A DNA stretch of 64,000 nt from NCBI RefSeq assembly GCF_965214665.1, contig NZ_OZ243970.1, forward strand, positions 2,640,767 through 2,704,766, read 5' to 3'. Position 1 is the stretch's first letter, and every line of letters starts with the position of its first letter. The position numbers were made by a program, and so were the translations under genes. The notes beneath the pieces are model-generated. The model had not been told where the DNA came from and did no database searches. It saw nothing but the letters and a program-made list of their open reading frames with translations. Below, one piece after another: positions 1 to 12,662 of the stretch. The stretch comes from Neolewinella sp. (lineage in GTDB: Bacteria; Bacteroidota; Bacteroidia; Chitinophagales; Saprospiraceae).

Positions 1-9
1 CTCATCCCC

Positions 10-357
10 ATGGCTTTCATTAACGAACTCTTTTCCCCAGAAACCCTTCAGGCCGCTCAGTCTTTCATTGACTACCTCGGCTCCGTTACCCCTCACATTG
101 TTGTGGAGGACATCATCATGCGCGGCCAGGAACTCGCTTCCAACATCGTCGTAGAGGATATCATCATGCGTGGTCACGAGGCCAACATCGTAGTCGAGGA
201 CATCATCATGCGTGGCCAGGAAGTAGCCTCCAACAACATCGTCGTAGAGGACATCATCATGCGTGGCCAGGAAGTAGCCTCCAACAACATCGTCGTAGAG
301 GACATCATCATGCGCGGTCACGAGGCCGGTATTGTGGTCGAAGACATCATCATGTAA
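10..357 (+). CDS. Small repeat protein with a 29-aa unique N-terminus followed by six exact IVVEDIIM octapeptides; candidate multi-core precursor peptide
   Basis: ATG at 10, TAA at 355-357. Octamers lie at 97-120, 145-168, 187-210, 238-261, 289-312 and 331-354. They use five different codon spellings and every difference is synonymous. Spacers are RGQELASN, RGHEAN, RGQEVASNN (x2) and RGHEAG. No signal peptide and no family recognised. Only 9 nt of upstream context is in the window. Confidence 0.6.
   Translation: MAFINELFSPETLQAAQSFIDYLGSVTPHIVVEDIIMRGQELASNIVVEDIIMRGHEANIVVEDIIMRGQEVASNNIVVEDIIMRGQEVASNNIVVEDIIMRGHEAGIVVEDIIM
97..354 (+). repeat. In-frame tandem repeat array (unit 42-51 nt) encoding IVVEDIIM plus a variable spacer, six copies
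   Basis: Direct reading of the sequence. It includes an exact 51-nt-period duplication across about 211-313 (cgtggccaggaagtagcctccaacaacatcgtcgtagaggacatcatcatgcg occurs twice), which suggests recent unit gain. Confidence 0.95.
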
Positions 358-409
358 GAAAACCCTACTCATCATCCATTCTATTCACCGCTTTCTAAAT
401 ACCACTGTC

Positions 410-433
410 ATGGTCGAAGACATCATCATGTAA
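410..433 (+). other. Echo mini-ORF ATG GTC GAA GAC ATC ATC ATG TAA (MVEDIIM*)
   Basis: The 24 nt at 411-434 are identical to 335-358, the 3' end of the repeat ORF including its stop codon. The GTG Val codon of copy 6 reads ATG here. The mini-ORF is in a different frame from the main ORF. Translation is unproven. Confidence 0.3.
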
Positions 434-508
434 GTCAGCAGTATCCCCTGCTCCTTACGCCATCCCCCGGCAATCCTCCTAAAGATGCCCTGCGGTCCAC
501 CGGTAGGT

Positions 509-2068
509 TCACGCCTGCTGCCGTTGTCGCCGCAACTTCCGCCCATCGGGCAGTACGGTATCCAGGTTTTCTAGTACGATCTCCCAAAGACTTTCGTACT
601 GAATGATCTCGGTACTATTAGCACGACCTAGCTTTTTCGCCTGTGGGCTGGTCATCTTCTTATAGATTTTACTTGACTCCCTTACCGTGGCCGCGCGGTG
701 GAAGTGACACTTTTCCGCGGTCAGCAGCAGCTTAAAGAAGCAGTTGTTTCGTAAGTTTTCATTGTTCATCAGATACCGCGTACCGTAACGAGCTAGGGCA
801 TCCGTACGGTCGATGATCTTACCGTACTGCTTCTGAGTGATGAAGTAGATAACCTGAAAGATTAGGATCTGAATGTTCATCCCCTGCTTGTTCTTGGAAT
901 AAGAGGGGACGTTGTTGACAAACTTATAAATTTTGAAATCCGGTAATTTGCCCTTCCGCTTGGAGGGATCGATACGTCCCGCTAACACTAGGAGGTTGAT
1001 GTAAGCTTCTAGAATCAACCAATATTCTACATGCTGCTGTGTAAGCAGATGGTTAAGCACGGCGCGGTCTACCCGCGCAAATTGCTCGTACGCATAGTCG
1101 AAATTTCCAGTTTGAAGTCCAAGCGTAATGGCATATTCGGAAAGCTTAATGTGGTTTATACTGTCGGACGGTACCATTTTCTCGGCGCGTTTTACCTGAA
1201 CGATGCCCTGCGAAAAGTCGCGAAGCTTGATGGAACACTCTACCCGTGTCAGGGCCATTAGGCTCAACGACTGCTTACCGGCACCCTTGCACTTTAGAAG
1301 AACCTGCTCGGCTTGGTTTGCCGTCTCGATGGCACCTACATAATTACCTACCAGGGTAAGCCCGTGCACTTTCATGATGAAGAACATCGCTTGAAGTGCC
1401 GATACGTGGGGGTACTTTTTCACAAGGTGCTCACAGTCAGCAACATACTCTGCTACCTTGGTACCGATTTCTTTGGGTAGTAGCTTATGCGCATACATCA
1501 TACGCCGCATCTCACGGTAGCGACTGGACACTAAGTTCAGCACCCGCTCCGCCTCGGCGTAGTAGTCTGCCATAGCTTGGTACTTAGCAAATCGCTTTTC
1601 GTCGAAGCCGACTCCCAAGTATAGACTGGCTAAAATTGAGGCTAAGCGATGATTGATCGGAAGGATCTCAAAATCCTTAACCCGTCGAAGGGTTGTGTGT
1701 GATAGGTACCTGGCACTGTGCCAGGCTCGCCGAAGCAACAGTAGGTTGATCAAATTCAACTGGCGAAAGCCGTTGATCTGTGCATTATCGTAGTCCCGGT
1801 AGTTTGAGGAGTACACATCCTCGTCCATCACAGCAGTCGTGAGCAAATCCCGAAACCGGTTCTTCAGAGCCCGATAAGCAGGATGCGAGGGGGTGTGTTT
1901 AGGACCGTAAAGCTGAGCTACAATTTGCCCCTCCGTCAAATTATTTTGCTTCACCAGCCGGTGCAGCGCACCAATCATCGAGGGTTTGCCCTTCGTCTGA
2001 GTGATCTTCAGCAGTTTTGTCACCTTTTTTGGGGAGGCGATCACTAACAGCTCGCGTATGTCTTCCAT
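509..2068 (-). CDS. Hypothetical 519-aa all-helical protein with a possible N-terminal HTH; candidate regulator/receptor
   Basis: Long uninterrupted ORF convergent with the repeat-peptide ORF. The N-terminal segment NLTEGQIVAQLYGPKHTPSHPAYRALKNRFRDLL resembles a sigma-70 region 4 / LuxR-type HTH. The remainder is helix-rich, with no TM segment or signal peptide. G+C is clearly lower than in neighbouring genes. Confidence 0.7.
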   Translation of the reverse strand: MEDIRELLVIASPKKVTKLLKITQTKGKPSMIGALHRLVKQNNLTEGQIVAQLYGPKHTPSHPAYRALKNRFRDLLTTAVMDEDVYSSNYRDYDNAQINGFRQLNLINLLLLRRAWHSARYLSHTTLRRVKDFEILPINHRLASILASLYLGVGFDEKRFAKYQAMADYYAEAERVLNLVSSRYREMRRMMYAHKLLPKEIGTKVAEYVADCEHLVKKYPHVSALQAMFFIMKVHGLTLVGNYVGAIETANQAEQVLLKCKGAGKQSLSLMALTRVECSIKLRDFSQGIVQVKRAEKMVPSDSINHIKLSEYAITLGLQTGNFDYAYEQFARVDRAVLNHLLTQQHVEYWLILEAYINLLVLAGRIDPSKRKGKLPDFKIYKFVNNVPSYSKNKQGMNIQILIFQVIYFITQKQYGKIIDRTDALARYGTRYLMNNENLRNNCFFKLLLTAEKCHFHRAATVRESSKIYKKMTSPQAKKLGRANSTEIIQYESLWEIVLENLDTVLPDGRKLRRQRQQA

Positions 2069-2139
2069 GAGTATGTTCCATTTTTGAGCGCTTATCGCTT
2101 CGTGTGGAACGCCTAAGTTACGCTAAATCAAGCGTTTAT

Positions 2140-2167
2140 CAAAAGTAAGGGAGAAGAACCTCCCAAA
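2140..2167 (-). promoter_or_regulatory. Putative Bacteroidetes-type promoter for the 519-aa gene
   Basis: On the minus strand, TACTTTTG (TAnnTTTG -7 box, 2140-2147) and TTTG (2164-2167) are separated by a 16-nt spacer, about 70 nt upstream of the ATG at 2068. This is a motif match only. Confidence 0.25.
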
Positions 2168-2200
2168 AAATAGCTTTACGAAAGGGCGGATTCTGCTTGT

Positions 2201-2229
2201 TTTGTGCCCCCTACACCCCCCTATATTTG
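2201..2229 (+). promoter_or_regulatory. Putative Bacteroidetes-type promoter with no annotated downstream gene
   Basis: TTTG at 2201-2204 and TATATTTG (TAnnTTTG) at 2222-2229, with a 17-nt spacer. It points toward the terminator at 2426-2457. This is a motif match only. Confidence 0.25.
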
Positions 2230-2425
2230 TATCATCGAAAGGGGGAACACCTAAACCCACCCGCCCAAAAGAATCTAAATCTTGAGTTTTATGAAATTGT
2301 GTTTGTTCATAGTGTCTCTTTAGTTATAATTCGCAACCCTTGAATGTGGGGTTAATAGCATCAAAGGAGTGACTGACTTTACTAGCCTCGAGTCAGTTTA
2401 CCGGTTTAGCGAAATTATAGCGACA

Positions 2426-2457
2426 GCGCCAACCGCTTTTCGGTTGGCGCTTTTTTT
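2426..2457 (+). terminator. Rho-independent terminator hairpin
   Basis: GCGCCAACCG (2426-2435), loop CTTTT, CGGTTGGCGC (2441-2450), then TTTTTTT (2451-2457). The 10-bp GC-rich stem is perfect. It lies 45 nt beyond the 3' end of the minus-strand PorP/SprF gene, but the U-tract is on the plus strand. Confidence 0.6.
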
Positions 2458-2501
2458 GTGCCAACTTTAGCGGTAAAGCTACGGAAAAATTTTTTAAGTC
2501 C

Positions 2502-3509
2502 CTACCGGAACATCCCCATACAGTCATTGTACCGGTCTGCATACCGCCGCCGCTGCACCTCGCGGCTATCCCCGAAGTCCACCGCCACACTGAGTTCCAG
2601 GGTAGGTCCCAGACCCCCCGGCACACTACGTAGCCCCGAAATCACCGAGTCGTAGCTCAGGCCCACCTTAAAGACATCCTGCCGGAAGGTCACCGCCCCG
2701 ATAAAGCCGTCCGGATTCCCGAAGGCGTGCCGGTACCACCCCCCCACGGCAAACTGCCCGTAGCCCAAGTAGGCGCCCAGGTTGAGCTGCTGAAACTGCG
2801 CCTGGCTGGTGTAGAGAAAATTAGGCGTCACGTAGACCGGCCGCTGCGGATTCGCGTACCGCTTCACGTCCAGCTGCGTGCCGGCGTGCAGACTGAAGCG
2901 CTGCGGCCGACCGGCGTAGAGGTTGTTGTCCAACTGCAGCAAATTCTCCTCCGGCCGGTTCATGTGCTCGATGCTGAAGCCCGCGTAGAGGTTCTTGACG
3001 TACATGAGGATGCCGGAGCTGAGGTCCACGGAGGTACGCGCCACGCTGGCCAGTTGCTCCTGGGTCACGGTATTATCTCCCGAGGGACTTATCATATCCC
3101 CAAAAATCAAGCCGTTATAATCAATTCGTGTGGTCAGCAGACCGGCGCTCAGTCCGATGCGTGCGTGCAGTTCGTCGGTCACCCGCACGTCGTAGGCGTA
3201 CACCAGTCCGGCCAGGGTATTGGTGTACAGTCCCTCCAGCTGGCGGTCGGTCAGCATCCGAAAGCCGAAACTCGAGGGGCTGCGGTACATCGGCAGCTCC
3301 AGGCTTACGGCCAGGGTCTGGTAAGCACTGGGGTAGCTGGTGTGCTGCGCCCGGTAGTTGGCCGTCACCCGCGGGGCGGCACTCACCCCCGCAAAGGCCG
3401 GGTTAAGCTGCATGGGGGAGGCGTAGAACTGCGAGAACACTGCATCCTGCGCACCCGCCCAGGTAAAACAAAGGAGTAAAGGGGTTAGAGTGTAAAGGAA
3501 ACGGCGCAT
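2502..3509 (-). CDS. PorP/SprF family type IX secretion system membrane protein
   Basis: Signal peptide MRRFLYTLTPLLLCFTWAGAQD followed by FSQFYASPMQLNPAFAG, the family N-terminal motif. It has beta-barrel-like alternating composition. I chose the start at the internal ATG (3509) where the signal peptide begins; the ORF track extends to 3602. Confidence 0.8.
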   Translation of the reverse strand: MRRFLYTLTPLLLCFTWAGAQDAVFSQFYASPMQLNPAFAGVSAAPRVTANYRAQHTSYPSAYQTLAVSLELPMYRSPSSFGFRMLTDRQLEGLYTNTLAGLVYAYDVRVTDELHARIGLSAGLLTTRIDYNGLIFGDMISPSGDNTVTQEQLASVARTSVDLSSGILMYVKNLYAGFSIEHMNRPEENLLQLDNNLYAGRPQRFSLHAGTQLDVKRYANPQRPVYVTPNFLYTSQAQFQQLNLGAYLGYGQFAVGGWYRHAFGNPDGFIGAVTFRQDVFKVGLSYDSVISGLRSVPGGLGPTLELSVAVDFGDSREVQRRRYADRYNDCMGMFR

Positions 3510-3651
3510 GCCTAAAGCTACTCCCATTATGTCCACTATCCAAACGCTTGCATCCGGTAGTCGCCCGTCCGACACCCCCCGTAATGTCGGCCCGCAGAAC
3601 AACGTTTACCCGCCGCCGCTGTATCTTAATTTTGTGCTCCAAGCCCGTCCT

Positions 3652-6600
3652 ATGCTCAAGTTTACCCTGTCTCTCCTTTGTCTCTGTAGCGCCCTTCCGC
3701 TCCTGGCGCAGCAAATCCAGCAGACCCTGCGCTGGCAGGAAGCGCAGACCGTGGAGTGGGAGGGCCAGCGCAGCGCCGTACTGTCCTACCGACTGGGCGG
3801 GGCCCCGATAGCTATCGGGGGTGCAACGAAGAGTGGTGAGGTGCCCGCCTTCGTCCATACCTTCCGCGCCGCCAGTGGAGCGCCGCTGCGTGTCGAAGTG
3901 ACGAGCCTGCAAACCGAGCCATTCACCCCCCCGTCCGCCTTTGCCGCCGAGGTGCCCGAGGCCTTCACCTTCGACTACACGGTGGTGCAGCAACCCGAGG
4001 GCTGGCTGGGCAAGGTGAGCAGCCCGTCGATCATCCGTACCGCGGCGGGCTACGAGCGACTGCTCGCTGTGAACCTGCGGCTAGTGCCGGAGCTCGGACC
4101 TACCTCTGCCGGCCTGCGCTCGGTCGTGGATTTCGCTACCAACTCCGTGCTGCGGGAGGGCGAGATATACCGCTTCGCCATTCCCAAAACGGGAGTATAT
4201 AAGCTGACCCGTGGCTTTCTGGTCGATCAGCTGAAGGTCCTGGGGCTCGATGGAATAGACCCGCGCGACATCAAAATCTATGGACAGGACGGCGGTATGC
4301 TCCCCGAAACCAATAACGCACTGGCCTTCGATGACCTTGTGGAGCAGGCCATCACCATCGAGGGGGAGGACGATGGGAGCTTCGACGGGGGCGACTTTAT
4401 TCTACTCTACGCCGAGGGCCCCGACGACCGGACCTACGACGCGCTGGCCAACCGCTTCGTGTACAGTAAGAACATCTATACTGAGGAGAACTACTATTTC
4501 CTTCAGCTGGGCACGGCCGGGCGGGGACGTCGGGTTACTGCCCTACCCTCCGCGGCGGGCGGCACGGTGGTGGACAGCTACGATGCGCTGTACCGCTTCG
4601 AGGAAGATCGTACCAATGTGTTACACGAGCTAGGACAGGAAAGCAATAGTCACGGATCGGGGCAGACGTGGTTCGGAGAATTCTTTAAGGTGAACCGGGA
4701 GCGGAACTTTTCTGATTTTGCCACCATCCCCGATCTGGTCACCAGTGAGCCGGTGGGGGTACGGGCGCGGATGGGACTACGGGCGACGGCCCCCAGCGGC
4801 TTTTTTCTTACCGTCAACGGGCAGGAAGTCAGCAGTTTTCTGGCCTCGCGCGTCAACTTCGGGGCGCAGGAGCAGCAGTCGGCCGTCGATGTCACTGATC
4901 TGGCCGGCTCCGTCACGCTGGGCAGCGAGCGGGTATCAGTCAAGCTCACCTACCCCATCCCCGCGGCAGCCAGCCAGAGTGAGGGCTGGCTGGACTACAT
5001 CGAGTTGCAGGCACGCCGGCGCCTCAGCTTCGGGGGCCAGGACCAGTTCAACTTTCGCGACACGCGGAGCCGCAACTTCGGCGCGATCACCTATAACCTG
5101 CTTAACCCCCCGGCCGATGCCCGGGTGTGGCGGGTAGATAGCCTGGGCGACGTGCAGCAGGCGACACTAAATGGCAGTAGCTTTTCAGCCCCCGGGCGGG
5201 AACTTTACGAGTACGTCGCCTTTCGTCCGACGGCCGCCCTGCTGACCCCGCGGCCGGTCGGACGGGTAGAGAATCAGAACCTGCACGCGGTGGTCCAGGC
5301 CGACATGATCATCGTCACCCATCCGGACTTCCTCACCCAGGCCGAGCGGCTGGCCGAGCACCGGCGCGAGCACAATGGCTACACAGTACAGTTGGTGACG
5401 ACCCAGCAGATATACAACGAGTTCAGTAGCGGCCGGGACGACGTGGCCGCGATCCGCAACTTCGTGCGTATGGTGTACGAGCGTGACGGGGATCTGCGCT
5501 ACCTCTTGCTGTTTGGCGACGGCAGTTTTGATCACCGCGACGTGTACGGACTGGGGGACAATTTCATCCCCACCTACCAGTACCAGGGGGCCTTTACCGA
5601 GGTGCGCAGTTTTCCGGCCGATGACTTTTTTGGCATTATGGCACCATCGGCAGGCGGTCAGCCCCTCGGCCCCGATCTGAGTGTCGCCGTGGGGCGTTTA
5701 CCGGTAAAATCGGCCGATGAGGCGGGTCCGGTGGTAGAGAAGCTCATCCGCTACGACCGGGATCCCTCCGCCCTAGGGGACTGGCGCACCCGGATGGTCT
5801 TCGTGGGCGACGACGAGGACCAGGGCCGGCACACCATCGACGTGAACCGGGTGGCGAATGCCGTGAAGGCGCGCAAGCCCGACCTCAACTTCGATAAGCT
5901 GTACTTCGACCTCTTTCCGCAACTGAGTCTGAGTGCGGGTGACCGCTACCCCGCCATCACGGAGGGACTGGACCGCGCCGTATTTCGCGGTGCGCTGGCC
6001 GTCACCTATCTCGGTCACGGTGGCCCGCGGGGGTGGGCGCAGGAGCGGGTGCTGACGATTCCCCAAATTCGCAACTGGACGCGGCCGGCCGGTGCGCCCG
6101 ATCCGATCCAACCGCCGGTGTTCATTACGGCTACCTGTACGTTTTCTAACTACGACGACGCCTCCTTCGTCAGTGCCGGCGAGGAGGCACTGCTCACGCC
6201 GCGCGGCGGGGTGATCGCCCTCATGACCACCACCCGCCCCGTTTTTGCTAATCGCAACTATGAGCTGACCGACAATACCGTGCAGGCTATGCTCGACCGT
6301 CCGGACGGCAACTGGCGCAGCCTCGGTGACATCATCCGCATCGCCAAGAATGAGACCACGCCGATCGACCGCGGCTTCCTCAGCGGCGATACGCAGAACG
6401 CCCGCAAGTTCACCCTGCTCGGTGACCCGGCTACCGTGATTGCGCTACCCACCCACGGCGTACGCACTACCATGGTGGATACGATGTCGATCGACGGGGT
6501 ACGTACCGACACCGTCCGTGCCCTCCAGAAGATGCGCATTGGCGGCGAGATCGTCGACGTGAACGGTAACCTACTGGCCGACTTCAACGGCGAGGTATTT

Positions 6601-7554
6601 CCTACCATTTACGATAAGGCCCAGACCATACCCACCCTGCAGCAGGATGGGAGTAGTCCGCTACTCGAAGTGGAGGTGCAGCGCAACATCGTCTTCCGCG
6701 GTCGCGCCACGGTGACCAACGGTAAATTTTCCTTTGAATTCGTGGCACCGCGCGACATCGACTATACCTTCGGTCCGGGCAAAGTGAGCTACTACGCCGC
6801 CGACCGCAGTCAGTTTACCGATGCGGCGGGTTTCTATGATCAGTTGATCATCGGGGGCACCAGTCAGGAGAATGCGGGCAATGACCTTGGTCCTGAGGTA
6901 GAGGTCTACTTTGACGATACCGACTTTATGTCCGGCGGCCAGGTCAGTGAGGACCCCGTACTACTCCTTCACCTCTCTGACGATCTGGGCATCAACGTGA
7001 CCGGCAACAGCATCGGCCACGATCTGGAGGCCACCATCGATGGTGATACCCGCAATGCGATCGTGCTCAACGACTATTACGAGGCCGACGTCGACAATTT
7101 CCGTAGCGGTAAGGTGCGCTATCCCCTTTTCGACCTAGAGCCCGGTCTGCATACCATCAAGGTGCGCGCCTGGGACGTAGCCAACAACAACACCGAAGCC
7201 ACTACTGAATTCATCGTCACCGATGAGCGCGGCGCCTCCCTCACCCACGTATTCAACTATCCCAACCCCTTCACCACCCAGACCTGCTTCCAGTTCGACC
7301 ACAGCCTGATTGGTCAGAATGTGGAGGCCATCGTGCAGATTTACACCGTGAGTGGCCGGCTTGTCAAGACCCTAGAGCAGGGCTTCGACTTCAGTGACGG
7401 CAGCGTACGTCAGGATGACTGTATTGCCTGGGACGGGCTGGATGACTACGGTGATCAGCTGGCGCGCGGGGTGTACTTGTACCAGGTGCGGCTGCGGGGG
7501 GATGGGGTGAATCTGGTGAATGGGGAGTTGGAGAAGTTGGTGATTTTGCGGTAG
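3652..7554 (+). CDS. Peptidase C25 (gingipain-fold) family protein with a T9SS C-terminal sorting domain; PorU-like
   Basis: Signal peptide MLKFTLSLLCLCSALPLLAQQ starts at 3652, and a TAATTTTG -7 box lies at 3627-3634. C25-like segments are present: MIIVTHPDF...AAIRNFV...YLLLFGDGSFD, His in YLGHGGPRGW and Cys in FITATCTFSNYDD. The C-terminal FNYPNPFTTQTCFQFDH...VQIYTVSGRLVKTLE is a Por secretion tail. The size (1300 aa) fits PorU, but no PorV gene is adjacent. Confidence 0.7.
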   Translation: MLKFTLSLLCLCSALPLLAQQIQQTLRWQEAQTVEWEGQRSAVLSYRLGGAPIAIGGATKSGEVPAFVHTFRAASGAPLRVEVTSLQTEPFTPPSAFAAEVPEAFTFDYTVVQQPEGWLGKVSSPSIIRTAAGYERLLAVNLRLVPELGPTSAGLRSVVDFATNSVLREGEIYRFAIPKTGVYKLTRGFLVDQLKVLGLDGIDPRDIKIYGQDGGMLPETNNALAFDDLVEQAITIEGEDDGSFDGGDFILLYAEGPDDRTYDALANRFVYSKNIYTEENYYFLQLGTAGRGRRVTALPSAAGGTVVDSYDALYRFEEDRTNVLHELGQESNSHGSGQTWFGEFFKVNRERNFSDFATIPDLVTSEPVGVRARMGLRATAPSGFFLTVNGQEVSSFLASRVNFGAQEQQSAVDVTDLAGSVTLGSERVSVKLTYPIPAAASQSEGWLDYIELQARRRLSFGGQDQFNFRDTRSRNFGAITYNLLNPPADARVWRVDSLGDVQQATLNGSSFSAPGRELYEYVAFRPTAALLTPRPVGRVENQNLHAVVQADMIIVTHPDFLTQAERLAEHRREHNGYTVQLVTTQQIYNEFSSGRDDVAAIRNFVRMVYERDGDLRYLLLFGDGSFDHRDVYGLGDNFIPTYQYQGAFTEVRSFPADDFFGIMAPSAGGQPLGPDLSVAVGRLPVKSADEAGPVVEKLIRYDRDPSALGDWRTRMVFVGDDEDQGRHTIDVNRVANAVKARKPDLNFDKLYFDLFPQLSLSAGDRYPAITEGLDRAVFRGALAVTYLGHGGPRGWAQERVLTIPQIRNWTRPAGAPDPIQPPVFITATCTFSNYDDASFVSAGEEALLTPRGGVIALMTTTRPVFANRNYELTDNTVQAMLDRPDGNWRSLGDIIRIAKNETTPIDRGFLSGDTQNARKFTLLGDPATVIALPTHGVRTTMVDTMSIDGVRTDTVRALQKMRIGGEIVDVNGNLLADFNGEVFPTIYDKAQTIPTLQQDGSSPLLEVEVQRNIVFRGRATVTNGKFSFEFVAPRDIDYTFGPGKVSYYAADRSQFTDAAGFYDQLIIGGTSQENAGNDLGPEVEVYFDDTDFMSGGQVSEDPVLLLHLSDDLGINVTGNSIGHDLEATIDGDTRNAIVLNDYYEADVDNFRSGKVRYPLFDLEPGLHTIKVRAWDVANNNTEATTEFIVTDERGASLTHVFNYPNPFTTQTCFQFDHSLIGQNVEAIVQIYTVSGRLVKTLEQGFDFSDGSVRQDDCIAWDGLDDYGDQLARGVYLYQVRLRGDGVNLVNGELEKLVILR

Positions 7555-7650: not shown

Positions 7651-9390
7651 CTAGTTATACCCAGGGTTCTGGGGGAGTACCTCAGTACCCTGCAGGTCGA
7701 TCTGAGCCTGGGGAATCGGGTAGTACAAATCCTGAGGAGCTACAAATTCAGCGCCACGGTACGGCAACGGTAGGAACTGCTGCTCGAAGTCAATGATACG
7801 ATTAAGCTCAGATTCGGCAAGTCCCCAACGACGCAGGTCAAAGAAACGGTGTCCTTCACCACTTAACTCAAGCTTCCGCTCAAAGTAAAGAGCAGTGCGG
7901 GCTTCATCGGCGCTACCGAAGCTATCGTAAGTGTCAATGCTGTAATTAGCAGCATCTTCACCATCTTCCGTTTTGAGGAGGCTAGCGGCGTTGGCAGCGC
8001 GGGAACGCACCTGATTGATAAGTTCACGACCACCTTCTACATCGTCAGTCTCGATCTTTGCTTCAGCAAGCATCAGTAGCACGTCGGAAAAGCGGATGAT
8101 ATTGTAATTCATCGAGCCGTACCCACGAGTCCAGGAGGTACCATCACTGAAGCTGCCTTCCTGGCTAGCGTAATAGACGAACTTCTTGGGGGAGTATGGG
8201 CCACCGTTATCCTGCTTGCGGATCCAATCCTGACCGGGGTGAAGTCCCCAACCTAGATAAGGTACGCCGCGACGTCCAACACTGTGCTCGAGGCGGGGGT
8301 CGACGGGCTCATTGCCCAGGGTATAGGGATCGGCGCTCAGCAGACCGAAGTCAGTCTTCAGGCGGTTGCTCTCACTGTTGTAGCTATTGTCTAACAGGGG
8401 CAGGCCGTCTTCCGTACGAAAAGAGTTGGCCAAGTCGAAGGTAGGCTGGAAGAAGCCACAGCAATTGCCCGGGCCGGTCGAACCGGTGTTGTGGGGAAAG
8501 TTAAGTACGAAGTCAGGGTTGGCTACGTTGGTCGTACCGCTGTTAGCAGCGGCCTGAACGGCAAATACCGATTCCATGCTGTTGTCGAACTCGGCGTTGA
8601 AGGCGTTAGCATAGTTGTCCAGTAGGCCATATTTCTGACCGTTGGCGGTTTGCCCGTTATCAACAACGTTTTGTAGGATCGTCCTGGCATCGTTCCACTT
8701 TTCCTGGAAAAGGTAGGTCTTGCCGAGATATGCTCCAGCTGCCCACTTATTAGCACGACCGGCATCGGGAGAAGTCTCGGGTAGGTTGTCGAATGCATAC
8801 TGAAAGTCGGCCTCGATGTTACCCCAGTTAGAGGTGGAGACGACGGTCTGCTGCTCCTCTACTGTGAGCCCGGGGGTTAAGAAGGGGGCCTGGTTGAAGC
8901 TTATCTGCAACTGAAAGTAGTAGTGTGCCCGCAGGAAGCGAGCTTCGCTCTCGAGTCGAATCCGGTCATCGTCTCGCAGCAGCGGGTCTTCCGACTGCGC
9001 GAGCAGCGTCAGCGTGGCGTTTGCACGGGTTACCCCTTCGAAAAGGCCTACCCAACGGTCATTGGGAATACGGGAAGTGGGGTTTAGCTGATACCGGACA
9101 AGGTCATTGATGTCTGAAAAGTCACCGTCTTCCGTACCCTTATTGGCTTCGCCGCCCTGAATGGAGCCATTAGCCCAATTAGAGGCACCGCCGAAGTAGT
9201 TCCCGCGGCCACCGAGCTGAGCGTAGGCACCTAATAACACTCCTTCAACACCGGCTTTAGTGGCTAGTACTTCCGGGGCAAGTACCCCACGGGGAGATAC
9301 TTCGAGAAATTCGTCACTACAGGTCGTAAGGAGTCCTCCGACCATGGCTGCTCCCAGCAATAAGCGGGGTAGTTTTTTATAAAATCGCAT
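7651..9390 (-). CDS. susD: SusD/RagB family nutrient-binding outer membrane lipoprotein
   Basis: Lipoprotein signal ...GGLLTTCSDEF. Its size (579 aa), TPR-like helical composition and position immediately downstream of a SusC-type gene support the call. Confidence 0.85.
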   Translation of the reverse strand: MRFYKKLPRLLLGAAMVGGLLTTCSDEFLEVSPRGVLAPEVLATKAGVEGVLLGAYAQLGGRGNYFGGASNWANGSIQGGEANKGTEDGDFSDINDLVRYQLNPTSRIPNDRWVGLFEGVTRANATLTLLAQSEDPLLRDDDRIRLESEARFLRAHYYFQLQISFNQAPFLTPGLTVEEQQTVVSTSNWGNIEADFQYAFDNLPETSPDAGRANKWAAGAYLGKTYLFQEKWNDARTILQNVVDNGQTANGQKYGLLDNYANAFNAEFDNSMESVFAVQAAANSGTTNVANPDFVLNFPHNTGSTGPGNCCGFFQPTFDLANSFRTEDGLPLLDNSYNSESNRLKTDFGLLSADPYTLGNEPVDPRLEHSVGRRGVPYLGWGLHPGQDWIRKQDNGGPYSPKKFVYYASQEGSFSDGTSWTRGYGSMNYNIIRFSDVLLMLAEAKIETDDVEGGRELINQVRSRAANAASLLKTEDGEDAANYSIDTYDSFGSADEARTALYFERKLELSGEGHRFFDLRRWGLAESELNRIIDFEQQFLPLPYRGAEFVAPQDLYYPIPQAQIDLQGTEVLPQNPGYN

Positions 9391-9413: not shown

Positions 9414-12400
9414 TTAAAAGTCAGCGCTGAGCTGAAAGTTGAAACTACGGGTAACGGGGTAGTTGCCCACATCGACGCCGAAGTCAGTATCGGCCGATCC
9501 ACCAACAGCAGGGTCCAGTCCTTCGTAGCCGGTAATAGTGAACAGGTTGTTGCCAGACACCGCTAAGCGCAGGTTAGAGAACGCACCACCGAACGAGCTG
9601 TTACCGAAAGTATATCCCAGGGTCAGGTTGGTCAGACGCAGGTACGATCCATCCTCAACGTAGTAGCTGTTGGACTGCTGCGAAGTACTGAAATTCGAGG
9701 CCTCCTCGTAGATGGGTACTTCGGTATCCCGATTATCCGGAGTCCAGCTATCAAGCACCCGAGTCGAGACAGCCGCGCCGGTAAAGGTGCCGTAGAAATC
9801 AGTAAACCACTTCGAGTTGTTGTAGATTTCGTTGCCAAGGCTGGTGTAGAAGAAAGTCGTCAGATCGAACCCTTGATACATCAACTTGAGGTTAAGACCA
9901 CCCGTAAAGTCAGGCACGGCGCTTCCAAGGAAGGTACGGTCTGCTTCATTGACGATACCGTCAGGTACACCCGTCAGTTCGCCATCTTCATCCCGGCTGT
10001 TATTATCCTCAAAACGGAAGCGACCGGGGGCAGCACCGTCCTGGGTAGGGGCATTTTGTACCTCATCCTCCGATTGGAATAGACCAAGAACCTTGTAACC
10101 AAAGAAGGACGAGAGTGGGCGACCAACCTGATTGCGAACGATGGCCCCGTTGATCCGGGTGCCGAAGCGATCAAAGAAGTCGGTGTCGTCGGTAAATTTG
10201 GTGATTTCGTTCTGCAACACTGCTCCATTTACGGTAAGCTCGAAGCTGAAGTCCTGAGTAATATTATCCCGATAGATCAGCTGAGCATCAATGCCTTGGT
10301 TACGCATACTACCGATGTTGACAACCGGCGCAGTAGCTACGGGGCCAGTGACGGCGGGCAGCGGAAGCTGTACCAGTAGGTCGTTGGTATTTCTGCGCCA
10401 GAAGTCGATGATGAAATCAAATTTGCCGCCTACGAAAGTGGCATCCAAACCGATATTGGTGGTTTCGCTGCCTTCCCACTTCGCCCGTTCAGTACCGATG
10501 CGGCTGAGGTAGAAGCCATTGCTAGCTGAGTTATTACCGCCGCTAATTGGATAGCTACCTTGGCCGATCTGCTGAGAATACAGATTAAAGCGGTTCTCAG
10601 CCTGTACGTTGTTAGAATTACCCATTACACCATAGCCACCACGAATTTTCAGATCAGCTATGAAGCTCTGGTTCTGCATAAAGCTCTCGCTAGTGACGCG
10701 CCAGGCCGCAGAAACGGCGGGGAATACTCCGTAGCGGTTGTCGGACCCGAAGCGGCTTGCTCCATCACGACGCAGTACGCCGGTGAGGTAGTAGCGGTCG
10801 TTCCAGTTGTAGTTCACCTGGCCAAAAACCGAGAAGAACTTACTGGGGATGTTGAAACCACTGCTGGCGGGGTTGGTCGTAACGTTGTTTAGGTTAATGA
10901 AGTTAACCGTCCGGCTGAAGGGATTAATACCAAACGCCCCGCTATTGCGGCCGTTGCCGATACTCAAGGCCTCCACTCCGGCTAGAATGTCTACGTTGTT
11001 CGCGCCAAAGCTCCGCTTGTAGTTTGCGGTATTGGTCCAGGTCCAGTCGTACCCATAGCCCTGGTACTCACCGTATCCGAAACTAGCGTTGTTCTCCGAA
11101 TTCTCGTACGTCTGCCGGTTGTAGTAATTACCGTTGTAGGCTCCGTAGTTACCGCCGATGCTGGAGCGCAGAACAAGTGCGTCGATGGGCTCCACCTCCA
11201 CGTAGAAGTTACCAAAAGCACCGGTGTTGAAGTTCTGGTTATTAGCTACTCCATCACGCTCGGCCACCGGGTTACGCGGGTTATTAAAGCCACGGGCTGC
11301 CGTACCGGCATAACCACCGAACTCATCGTAAATTGGGATGAGGGGGTTCATCCGGAAAGCACCCAGGATACTGTTCTCTTCCCGAGCTACGTTCTGGCCA
11401 CCCCCACCTCCGGTGAAGCCGCGCTGGGTGCTGTATGTAAATTGCAGGTTCTCACCAATGCGCACTCTACTACCCAAGTTGAACTCTGTATTGATACGGA
11501 AGCTATAGCGATCGGCACCGTTGTTCTTCAGGATACCGTCGAGGGTCTGAATACCTAGGCCAACGTAGTAACGTGCGGCCTCGGTGGACCCCTGGAATCC
11601 GAGAGTGTGTCGATTGAGCACCCCGGTCTGGGTAATTGCATCGTACCAATCGGTGCCTTCTTTGTTGGCGCGTACTACCTGATAAAGGCCACCCGCGCTT
11701 GGGTCAACGTTGTAGTTCTCTCTTTCGGCATTTAAATCAACCTCTCCAACCACTCCGTTGCGGCTACCTACTAGGATGTAATCGGGTAGTACCGGAGTGG
11801 CTCCATCGCCGTACTGAGGGTGGCCCCAGCCTTCGTCCCCGGGCTGTAAGCCAGCGTTACGGAAGGCCTCGAAGGTTTTATCCGCATCCTGCTGCGGCGT
11901 AAGCACCGCCTGCCCAGTTCCCGGATCAGTAAATCCAACCAATCCATCGTAACTCACCTGTAGCGGCGAGGGCGTCTTAGCGCCCCGCTTGGTCTGAATA
12001 ACAACTACACCACCCGCAGCCCGGGCACCGTAGATGGAAGCAGAAGAAGCATCCTTGAGTACGGAAGTAGCCTCGATGTCATCGGGGGAAAGGAAGCCAA
12101 TACCACCTACGGGTACACCATCTACTACATATAGCGGCGAGTTACCCCCGAAGGAGCCGAAGCCACGAATACGGATGATGGAGTTCGTCCCGGGCTGTCC
12201 GTTAGTAATGACGGTTACCCCCGCGGCACGGCCCTGTAGTTGCTGCTCTACGTTGCCCGAGGGGACGGCGGCAAGCTCCTCGGTGGATACTGTGGAAATA
12301 GCCGCAGTGGTCTGCCGCTTGGTGGTCGTGGCGTATCCCGTAACGACAATCTCGTCCAGTGCCACACCCTCATTCATCACCACATCCACCACCGTCTCGC

Positions 12401-12662
12401 CACTCAGGGTGACGGTCTGGGTCTGGTAACCGGTGTAGGAAAATTCTAGGTCAACGACGGTTTCGGGTACGGTAATCGAGTAATTGCCGTCAAAGTCAGC
12501 CACCGTACCTACGGTTGTGCCCTTGGCCAAGACGGTTGCCCCTACCAGGGGAAATCCGTCCGGATCGGTGATTGTACCGGTGACAGTTGTCTGCCCGGCT
12601 GCTTGCCCATACGCCAGCGCCGTGCAGAACAGCGCCACGATCAGGCCTAAAAGTCTTCTCAT
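9414..12662 (-). CDS. susC: SusC/RagA family TonB-linked outer membrane receptor
   Basis: Signal peptide, then a carboxypeptidase-regulatory-like domain (TVTGTITDPDGFPLVGATVLAKGTTVGTVADFDGNYSI). A plug region follows (VVTGYATTTKRQTTAAIS...ASSASIYGARAAGGVVVIQTKRG). The protein is 1082 aa and ends in a terminal F. Confidence 0.9.
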   Translation of the reverse strand: MRRLLGLIVALFCTALAYGQAAGQTTVTGTITDPDGFPLVGATVLAKGTTVGTVADFDGNYSITVPETVVDLEFSYTGYQTQTVTLSGETVVDVVMNEGVALDEIVVTGYATTTKRQTTAAISTVSTEELAAVPSGNVEQQLQGRAAGVTVITNGQPGTNSIIRIRGFGSFGGNSPLYVVDGVPVGGIGFLSPDDIEATSVLKDASSASIYGARAAGGVVVIQTKRGAKTPSPLQVSYDGLVGFTDPGTGQAVLTPQQDADKTFEAFRNAGLQPGDEGWGHPQYGDGATPVLPDYILVGSRNGVVGEVDLNAERENYNVDPSAGGLYQVVRANKEGTDWYDAITQTGVLNRHTLGFQGSTEAARYYVGLGIQTLDGILKNNGADRYSFRINTEFNLGSRVRIGENLQFTYSTQRGFTGGGGGQNVAREENSILGAFRMNPLIPIYDEFGGYAGTAARGFNNPRNPVAERDGVANNQNFNTGAFGNFYVEVEPIDALVLRSSIGGNYGAYNGNYYNRQTYENSENNASFGYGEYQGYGYDWTWTNTANYKRSFGANNVDILAGVEALSIGNGRNSGAFGINPFSRTVNFINLNNVTTNPASSGFNIPSKFFSVFGQVNYNWNDRYYLTGVLRRDGASRFGSDNRYGVFPAVSAAWRVTSESFMQNQSFIADLKIRGGYGVMGNSNNVQAENRFNLYSQQIGQGSYPISGGNNSASNGFYLSRIGTERAKWEGSETTNIGLDATFVGGKFDFIIDFWRRNTNDLLVQLPLPAVTGPVATAPVVNIGSMRNQGIDAQLIYRDNITQDFSFELTVNGAVLQNEITKFTDDTDFFDRFGTRINGAIVRNQVGRPLSSFFGYKVLGLFQSEDEVQNAPTQDGAAPGRFRFEDNNSRDEDGELTGVPDGIVNEADRTFLGSAVPDFTGGLNLKLMYQGFDLTTFFYTSLGNEIYNNSKWFTDFYGTFTGAAVSTRVLDSWTPDNRDTEVPIYEEASNFSTSQQSNSYYVEDGSYLRLTNLTLGYTFGNSSFGGAFSNLRLAVSGNNLFTITGYEGLDPAVGGSADTDFGVDVGNYPVTRSFNFQLSADF

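Follow-up and report, generated by a model that had tools for sequence, protein, structure and literature searches.

A 64-kb stretch of Neolewinella sp. DNA (Bacteroidota, Saprospiria, Lewinellaceae), referred to here as the window, opens with a compact set of peptide genes that converge on a gene for a receptor-like protein of 519 amino acids (Table 1). The first of the peptide genes encodes a precursor in which an acidic, amphipathic leader is followed by six copies of an octapeptide core, set apart by the spacers RGQELASN, RGHEAN, RGQEVASNN (twice) and RGHEAG. An original prediction, made from the letters of the window, had described the six cores, their five nucleotide spellings with exclusively synonymous differences, and these spacers, and translation of positions 10–357 confirms all of this. 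The core residues include no Cys, Ser or Lys, and Thr appears in some lineages only; cores 4 and 5 belong to a tandem duplication of 51 nt with 97% matches. Two partners lie beyond what the prediction covered, namely a stand-alone seventh copy of the peptide, MVEDIIM*, and the convergent 519-aa gene itself.

Exact-sequence look-ups gave no record for either the 115-aa precursor or the 519-aa protein (P0007), and the genomic context beyond the start of the window was taken from the loci of homologues. Scans of both proteins against Pfam, NCBIfam, PADLOC and PHROGs returned sub-threshold noise only (Collagen_bind, a type IX secretion system (T9SS) DNase, NsnC, and phrog_31521, of unknown function), and the precursor together with ten single-core relatives, described below, had no NCBIfam or Pfam match at or above cut-offs. 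Long open reading frames (ORFs) on the strand opposite the repeats (window 174–311 (-), and 7695–8126 (+) in the related locus L007) were considered as genes and set aside as by-products of the repeat, because every difference is in the third position of a + frame codon. Opposite-strand ORFs of 90–180 aa, with …DDVLDDDVVAG… repeats, occur also in L013 and L016 (+) and could be mis-annotated as genes.

Table 1. Features of the window, with their positions and the evidence on which each assignment is based
Feature	Position	Strand	Evidence or remark
Multi-core precursor gene, 115 aa: leader plus six core-plus-spacer units	10..357	+	Translation
Leader MAFINELFSPETLQAAQSFIDYLGSVTPH, 29 aa, conserved	10..96	+	Aligns with leaders of distant Lewinellaceae single-core precursors
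Core 1, IVVEDIIM (ATTGTTGTGGAGGACATCATCATG)	97..120	+	Translation, spelling count
Core 2, IVVEDIIM	145..168	+	Translation, spelling count
Core 3, IVVEDIIM	187..210	+	Translation, spelling count
Core 4, IVVEDIIM, inside recent 51-nt tandem duplication	238..261	+	Translation, repeat analysis
Core 5, IVVEDIIM, inside recent 51-nt tandem duplication	289..312	+	Translation, repeat analysis
Core 6, IVVEDIIM, stop codon 355–357 directly after	331..354	+	Translation
Mini-ORF ATGGTCGAAGACATCATCATGTAA = MVEDIIM*, 7 codons, 24 bp with stop	410..433	+	Repeat family; 47 such mini-ORFs across loci
Stem-loop starting at the mini-ORF stop codon	431..457	+	RNA fold -10.3 kcal/mol, z = -4.05, 0/200 shuffles as stable
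519-aa receptor-like protein P0007, 'hypothetical protein [Neolewinella sp.]'	509..2068	-	ORF, AlphaFold2 model, conservation, linkage
PorP/SprF-family T9SS protein	2502–3602	-	Family scan
T9SS sortase PorU	3508–7554	+	NF033707, 1145 bits
SusD/SusC pair	7651–9390 and 9414–12662	-	Family scan

Core repetition and peptide-level selection

A search of 5.8 billion proteins yielded just six relatives of the precursor (P0001–P0006), each with three to four cores of the form IVVEDI[IV][MT]. Further loci were collected by way of the neighbouring 519-aa gene, and multi-core precursors were found also in L007–L019, L027 and L040. In the 17 loci of the close clade, 197 cores are written in 87 DNA spellings and encode four peptide forms: IVVEDIIM (94), IVVEDIVT (64), IVVEDIIT (38) and IVVEDVIT (1). 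Over codons 1–5 (I-V-V-E-D) in these loci, all 10 of the single-step synonymous variants are seen and none of the 35 non-synonymous ones. This pattern is far beyond chance: purifying selection acts on the peptide and not on a DNA repeat, as had been proposed from the window by itself.

Core number is free to change. The copy-number variation that the original prediction suggested looking for in relatives is extensive, with 3–10 cores per gene, one to three genes per locus and up to 23 cores per locus; even L007, whose neighbouring 519-aa-type protein is 98% identical, has seven cores to the six of the window, one of them the variant IVVEDVIT. Assemblies often break in or beside the array, as at window position 1 (9 nt before the ATG), the start of L002 and the ends of L003 and L012, and P0001, P0002 and P0005 sit on contigs of 616–1710 bp broken in the same way; core counts from draft genomes may therefore be underestimates.

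The leader-plus-repeated-cores architecture proposed earlier is borne out by alignment, in which the leader is conserved across genera; the motif L[LF][ST]P[ED]x[ILV]xxA is common to multi-core and single-core precursors, and leaders contain L[ST]PE...[AY]G[ST]. Spacers vary in length and sequence across the family and can be as short as three residues (RSD, QAD, YAN). The statement that the last core is the exact C-terminus holds in the window and fails in many orthologues, which continue past it (...TRA*, ...TRVG*, ...MRA*, ...MRGTKMA*), and any release of the core would therefore need cuts at both of its boundaries.

At about 40% identity of the 519-aa homologue, in a clade seen in N. agarilytica, N. 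persica, N. antarctica, Lewinella sp. W8 and several metagenome-assembled genomes (MAGs), single-core genes of 39–48 aa take the place of the multi-core gene; they come in one to nine tandem copies and are often each followed by a mini-ORF. These have a homologous leader and a C-terminus that is exactly the core, for example TIIEDIYL, IVVEDVAI, IVVDDHIF, VVIEDIPM, IIVEDIFP, IVVEDVVL, TVINDLML, EIVIVDLIM or TAIEDYML. Across their alignment the C-terminal core varies more than the leader, with Asp as the sole invariant core residue. On sequence grounds, the short peptide appears to be the functional unit. Two independent routes thus lead to a high core dosage, intragenic repeats (3–10 cores in each of one to three genes) or tandem gene arrays. 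A reverse search started from the peptides returned 20 proteins, all annotated as 'hypothetical', and those loci that lie on a long enough contig again hold PhoH, a precursor, a mini-ORF and a convergent protein, here of 509 aa.

Beside the most distant 519-aa homologues, at 25–29% identity, nine loci (L006 9700–9840 (-), L030, L042, L049, L053, L060, L070, L079 and L085) have a paired ORF of 39–46 aa, divergent and about 170–440 nt upstream of the homologue, with a hydrophobic N-terminus (MxxIIxLLISLGII..PE) and an acidic/hydrophobic C-terminus (e.g., IVITDTEAL, NIVNDDMNGW). Judged by its sequence, this ORF looks like a classical secreted propeptide and a version of the same family.

The second kind of peptide gene is much smaller. 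We read the mini-ORF that follows the precursor as leaderless, its peptide corresponding to core residues 2–8 with Met in place of Val2. Six-frame scans recover 47 mini-ORFs of the form M[VITFM][ED]D[ILVH][ILVM][MLIFY]* in 24 of the 25 Lewinellaceae loci, with none in L026, and they mostly bracket the precursor array or come after each precursor gene. They show synonymous codon variation, use all three stop codons and lie in unconserved flanks, and are therefore kept as coding units and not as repeat debris. In several lineages mini-ORF and core have rare residues in common (IVVDDHIF and MTEDHIF; IVVEDVVL and MVEDVVL), which is what a common binding partner would produce and suggests that there is one.

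Upstream of about half of the mini-ORFs, at 15–35 nt, a short GC-rich stem-loop followed by ACAA[AC] can be drawn by hand (for example L003 6941–6956 and L010 7631–7646); 53.5% of cells are paired, compared with 33–40% in slid controls (alignment columns 17–32), and the element is weakly supported and is not predicted by RNAalifold, which gave no consensus RNA structure around the mini-ORFs. The stem-loop directly after the mini-ORF of the window, 52 nt before the stop codon of the convergent gene (509–511), probably marks the end of the peptide transcript, to judge from its predicted fold; comparable hairpins are found in about 9 of 15 related loci and are not universal.

At the other end of the array, loci of the close clade have a promoter-like motif, AAAGTGCCG-N~24-CATCTTTGGATCACAATCA and then TCTCATGAA, once per locus (L007 8224 (-), with equivalents in L008, L013–L019, L027 and L040), at a position just upstream of window position 1. 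It occurs neither upstream of the 519-aa gene nor elsewhere in the window and may, from its sequence and placement, be a regulated promoter or operator; CATCTTTG resembles the Bacteroidota -7 promoter element, TAnnTTTG. A sigma-70 promoter scan was uninformative, as expected for Bacteroidota, and Rfam at E up to 1 over window 1–2600 gave chance-level matches only (Spot42 and Qrr, at 2373–2458).

The convergent 519-aa protein and its surroundings

A co-conserved partner gene, on which the original prediction partly hung, is present: in 25 of 25 Lewinellaceae loci with a receptor homologue the array is convergent with the gene for the 519-aa protein. Sequence searches with this protein in Pfam, NCBIfam, PADLOC and the PDB found no match, and neither the full-length family nor its N-terminal domain retrieved anything relevant in profile searches of the PDB. 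Its AlphaFold2 model is all-alpha, with a predicted local distance difference test (pLDDT) score of 87.5, and has a five-helix N-terminal domain (about residues 1–81) followed, after about residue 90, by a superhelix resembling tetratricopeptide repeats (TPRs). A Foldseek search of the full model against the PDB puts TPR proteins at the top, including MalT domain III and AimR, the arbitrium peptide receptor, the latter among the best TM-scores (0.42–0.48, normalised by target). At the level of fold class, then, the predicted structure is a TPR-type superhelix. The N-terminal domain modelled alone (pLDDT 87.6) has its best TM-scores with sigma-factor region 4 (0.55–0.67; 3vfz_B at 0.67, root-mean-square deviation 2.8 A), all at E > 1, followed by OmpR/PhoB DNA-binding domains at about 0.4, again at E > 1; it includes a basic conserved helix, Y-[KR]-x-L-K-x-R-L.

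The residues invariant in the family (N385, K394, G396, N398, Y428, R431, R440, E487, Y491, E492 and W495) gather in the C-terminal third, and none of the conserved residues is a Cys, His, Ser or Asp. The protein is strongly basic (helix 61–82 has a mean charge of +4 and the conserved C-terminal region one of +7) and the peptides are acidic. Relatives are encoded at 310 loci in GTDB species representatives and, among the 80 of these 310 loci that were listed, are almost all from Saprospiraceae or Lewinellaceae. Clustering at 50% identity divides the family into 2,892 clusters, nearly all of full-length proteins of 500–520 aa, with several paralogues to a genome or in tandem; its size and fast divergence are a pattern typical of receptor families. 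Two homologues carry labels outside Saprospiria, L037 (Thermodesulfobacteriota, on a 2.6-kb contig) and L064 (a Kordia sp. MAG), the second sharing its chance motif matches, coordinates included, with the Saprospiraceae MAG L062; both labels are probably metagenome binning errors, and Saprospiria are the only group from which the family is known. An arbitrium-like phage origin was dropped because a scan of viral contigs gave no relatives of the protein.

Receptor paralogues stand in tandem or flank a single array in L004 (10001–15348), L006 (10001–13272), L061 (2396–7521), L031 and L043. In L004 the array between two paralogues encodes both TIIEDIYL and MIEDILL, which suggests that some genomes have a separate receptor for each peptide type. 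Distant receptor homologues adjoin, at 11 loci, a family of proteins of about 140 aa with the motif FGxPSKKCxGxGICRI, and in L080, L054 and L056 also a C39-peptidase/ABC exporter and an HlyD-like protein (examples of these neighbourhoods are L080 655–4637, L054 1767–4881 and 8141–8593, L031 5069–5479, L043 7748–8158 and L053 4906–5370). These neighbours hint that the receptor family is tied more generally to secreted-peptide or bacteriocin-like loci.

Gene order in close relatives runs GAPDH, PGK, a GAF protein, PhoH, the array, the convergent 519-aa gene, PorP, PorU and SusD/SusC. Across both Lewinellaceae clades the kept neighbours of the array are PhoH (22 loci) and the 519-aa gene only; the adjacency of PorP and PorU is confined to the close clade and is therefore probably synteny and not a functional link. 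No co-oriented gene lies downstream of the peptide ORFs in the window or in relatives.

Readings of the locus

We take the locus, tentatively, to be a peptide-ligand/TPR-receptor module that works like RRNPPA quorum sensing, a kind of peptide signalling described for Gram-positive bacteria and their phages (PMC10075063, PMC10518010, PMC9765709), without being a detectable member of that group; the evidence brings this reading somewhat short of probable. In such a module, one transcript region would hold the multi-core precursor gene or genes and one or two seven-codon ORFs, driven in close relatives by the conserved promoter-like motif. The precursor would consist of a leader of about 28 aa and a run of units, each a core (IVVEDI[IV][MT]) with a short spacer (R, Y or Q, then a small residue, with N at the end). 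Putative peptidases would cut both core boundaries and free several identical octa- or heptapeptides of hydrophobic–acidic–hydrophobic make-up from each chain, and the mini-ORFs would supply a near-identical heptapeptide (M-V-E-D-I-I-M/L/F/Y) directly, without processing. Acting as a cytoplasmic sensor, the basic 519-aa protein would bind the peptide, which has an invariant Asp and a free C-terminus, in its TPR-like superhelix. This would in turn switch the helical domain at its N-terminus, possibly a helix-turn-helix (HTH) like that of sigma region 4, with a probable effect on transcription: in the simplest case feedback on the peptide array, together with other targets. The peptide would either leave the cell and be re-imported, as in true quorum sensing, or act inside it. 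Of all this, the gene anatomy, the selection on the peptide, the amplification of cores, the linkage to the 519-aa gene and the predicted fold class of its product are shown; processing, binding to peptide and to DNA, and passage out of the cell and back are inferred.

A true extracellular quorum-sensing role is a subset of this reading and is possible but unlikely. We are just as doubtful of the widest form of the claim, in which the locus would be the first case of peptide-pheromone communication between cells in Bacteroidota, something rare in Gram-negatives, with a Saprospiria-wide receptor and with polyprotein and leaderless supply at once.

Several observations weigh against the module as described. 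There is no known route by which the peptide would cross the two membranes of a Gram-negative cell. The 64-kb window has no ABC-type match at E<1e-5, the neighbourhoods of the array hold no linked exporter, peptidase or oligopeptide importer, and the translated leader of the window precursor has, on inspection, no signal-peptide-like hydrophobic core. A conserved leader is more typical of precursors of bacteriocins or of ribosomally synthesized and post-translationally modified peptides (RiPPs) than of RRNPPA propeptides. On the receptor side, the best Foldseek match of the full model has E = 1e-3, which is not significant, and the matches are mostly to generic TPR proteins; those of the N-terminal domain are not significant either, no HTH or sigma family recurred when 50 such domains were compared with Pfam at E up to 10, and the 519-aa protein matches no TPR or HTH model in Pfam, which leaves binding to DNA putative. 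The mini-ORF and the core disagree in several lineages (IVVEDIVT with MVEDIIL), which the model does not explain. Peptide type does follow receptor phylogeny, a pattern that ancestry alone would also give. A function beyond any of the readings considered here is a minority possibility of some substance.

The original prediction left the choice between a pheromone-like polyprotein and a multi-core RiPP; the TPR-type partner and the leaderless seven-codon genes strengthen the first and the second is weakened. As a RiPP locus, the leader would be bound by a maturase, either the 519-aa protein as a new all-alpha enzyme or scaffold or enzymes encoded elsewhere, and modified cores would be excised and exported. 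Repeated cores behind a leader are familiar from RiPPs, genera share the leader and differ more in the C-terminal core, the invariant K394, R440, E487, E492, Y428 and Y491 of the 519-aa family could form an active site, and distant receptor homologues do stand beside the C39-peptidase ABC exporters and HlyD-like proteins mentioned above. Set against this, the 10 kb upstream in relatives (L001, L003), where the search for modifying and export genes had been recommended, hold QueA, CitMHS, GAPDH, PGK, a GAF protein and PhoH and no radical SAM, YcaO, ATP-grasp, LanB/C/M, methyltransferase, peptidase or ABC exporter. Neither a RiPP maturase nor a protease is found among the Pfam-annotated genes of the roughly 10 kb downstream in the window and relatives, and L004, in a different context, likewise has no RiPP-type modifying enzyme or protease. 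The precursor matches no NCBIfam or Pfam precursor family, the core offers no Cys, Ser or Lys and only Asp is invariant, and Cys, His, Ser and Asp are absent from the conserved residues of the 519-aa family. Leader-dependent maturation, moreover, could not act on the mini-ORFs, because they carry no leader. A RiPP is, on balance, improbable.

Still less credit goes to a precursor that stays uncleaved, as a beta-strand or amyloid-like repeat protein or as a multivalent ligand that clusters TPR proteins, with the mini-ORF peptides as monovalent competitors. Spacers of only three residues would suit tight turns, no processing peptidase is linked, and many orthologues do not end exactly at a core. 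Relatives, however, have single-core genes of 39–48 aa and seven-residue products, and repetition within a chain is therefore dispensable; core number is free (3–10 per gene, and six or seven at 98% receptor identity), and spacers vary in both length and sequence.

We consider very unlikely a cis-acting element in which transcription, or an antisense interaction with the convergent gene, is controlled by translation of Ile/Val/Met-rich codons or by stalling of the nascent peptide, and in which the peptide itself has no role: the shortness of the mini-ORFs, the stem-loop before about half of them, the hairpin directly after that of the window (z = -4.05) and the direction of the array, toward the 3′ end of the 519-aa gene, would fit it, but synonymous codons are used freely, leaving no fixed rare-codon pattern, the amino-acid sequence is conserved, acidic pair included, a conserved 28-aa leader and as many as 23 cores in a locus would be superfluous in a codon sensor, there is no Rfam match or consensus RNA structure, and no co-oriented downstream gene is there to attenuate. 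An attenuator model was rejected on this last point, and a cationic bacteriocin on the anionic character of the peptides.

If the locus is indeed a peptide-ligand/TPR-receptor module, peptide signalling through cytoplasmic TPR receptors would extend to a Gram-negative phylum, the question would be raised of how small peptides cross the outer membrane in both directions, and a function would be at hand for a large unannotated family that has no Pfam or NCBIfam model and comprises about 2,900 clusters at 50% identity. Marine particles, algal surfaces and activated sludge are habitats in which Saprospiria are abundant. The locus displays two evolutionary routes to high signal dosage, core repeats within a gene and tandem gene arrays, and holds genes of 24 bp that annotation pipelines miss. 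It is carried by cultured type strains (N. maritima CECT 8419, N. xylanilytica DSM 29526 and N. agarilytica DSM 24740), and the hypothesis is thus directly testable.

Comparison with known peptide systems

A full-text literature search for the peptide strings gave no match, and nothing relevant was found for Saprospiraceae or Bacteroidota together with peptide quorum sensing. Multi-core RiPP precursors, such as the cyanobactin precursor PatE and those of multi-core graspetides, and eukaryotic pheromone polyproteins such as yeast alpha-factor combine a leader, repeated identical cores and short spacers with recurring boundary residues. The Neolewinella precursor has the same layout, but there is no linked maturase or protease, the core has no conserved modifiable residues, no precursor family is matched, and the boundary is a single R, Y or Q in place of a dibasic site. 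Double-glycine peptides, handled by C39-peptidase ABC transporters (PCATs), have a GG, GA or GS cleavage motif after a leader of the LSxxELxxIxGG type. The L[ST]PE...[AY]G[ST] of the leaders here is a loose likeness only; PCAT was not matched in the window, and PCAT and HlyD stand beside distant homologues only.

Closer parallels come from signalling systems with peptide receptors. In the tandemly duplicated propeptides of Rap-Phr systems, several putative pheromone copies are freed by proteolysis, with a secretion signal ahead of them and maturation by extracellular proteases (PMC11343458). The presence of several peptide copies in one propeptide is the same here, whereas the identity of the cores, 3–10 of them in a gene and as many as 23 in a locus, and the lack of a signal sequence and of a known protease, are different.

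The mini-ORF has its counterpart in the leaderless communication peptide (LCP) SIP, which acts through RopB in Streptococcus pyogenes: an ORF of 24 bp beside the receptor gene encodes the mature peptide directly, with no sequences for secretion or processing, and gene callers overlook it (PMC10518010). The mini-ORF of the window is likewise exactly 24 bp with its stop codon and lies next to a candidate receptor gene. The LCP receptor is Rgg/RopB and its host a Firmicute, whereas the 519-aa protein has no Rgg or HTH_XRE family match in Pfam or NCBIfam; and here the leaderless gene coexists with leader-bearing multi-core precursors of almost the same peptide, a combination that we have not met in the literature cited.

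The fullest comparison is with the RRNPPA systems as a group (Rap-Phr, NprR-NprX, PlcR-PapR, Rgg-SHP, AimR-AimP). In both, a small peptide gene adjoins the receptor gene, the cytoplasmic receptor, here a predicted one, pairs a small helical N-terminal domain with a TPR-type superhelix, the receptor family has many diverging paralogues, and five to eight C-terminal residues, apparently unmodified, presumably make up the active peptide; in the Lewinellaceae, an adjacent small gene with a C-terminal candidate mature peptide is present in 25 of 25 loci, and AimR is among the best TM-scores, not significantly so, in the PDB fold search. The differences are as clear. The receptor here is about 515 aa in length as opposed to roughly 280–450, no test identified its N-terminal domain as an XRE-type HTH, the best fold matches being to sigma region 4 and not significant, and the host belongs to a Gram-negative phylum, on which the RRNPPA literature cited here reports nothing. 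The Neolewinella leaders are conserved acidic helices and not signal peptides, the hydrophobic type being found only beside homologues at 25–29% identity, and searches of Pfam, NCBIfam and the PDB detected no sequence or profile homology to RRNPPA proteins, with Foldseek at E 1e-3 or weaker. The likeness to Rgg/SHP put forward in the original prediction consequently stands as an analogy of mechanism and not as membership of the family. A system with RRNPPA-like architecture and no detectable homology to RRNPPA receptors would therefore have arisen independently, or have diverged beyond recognition.

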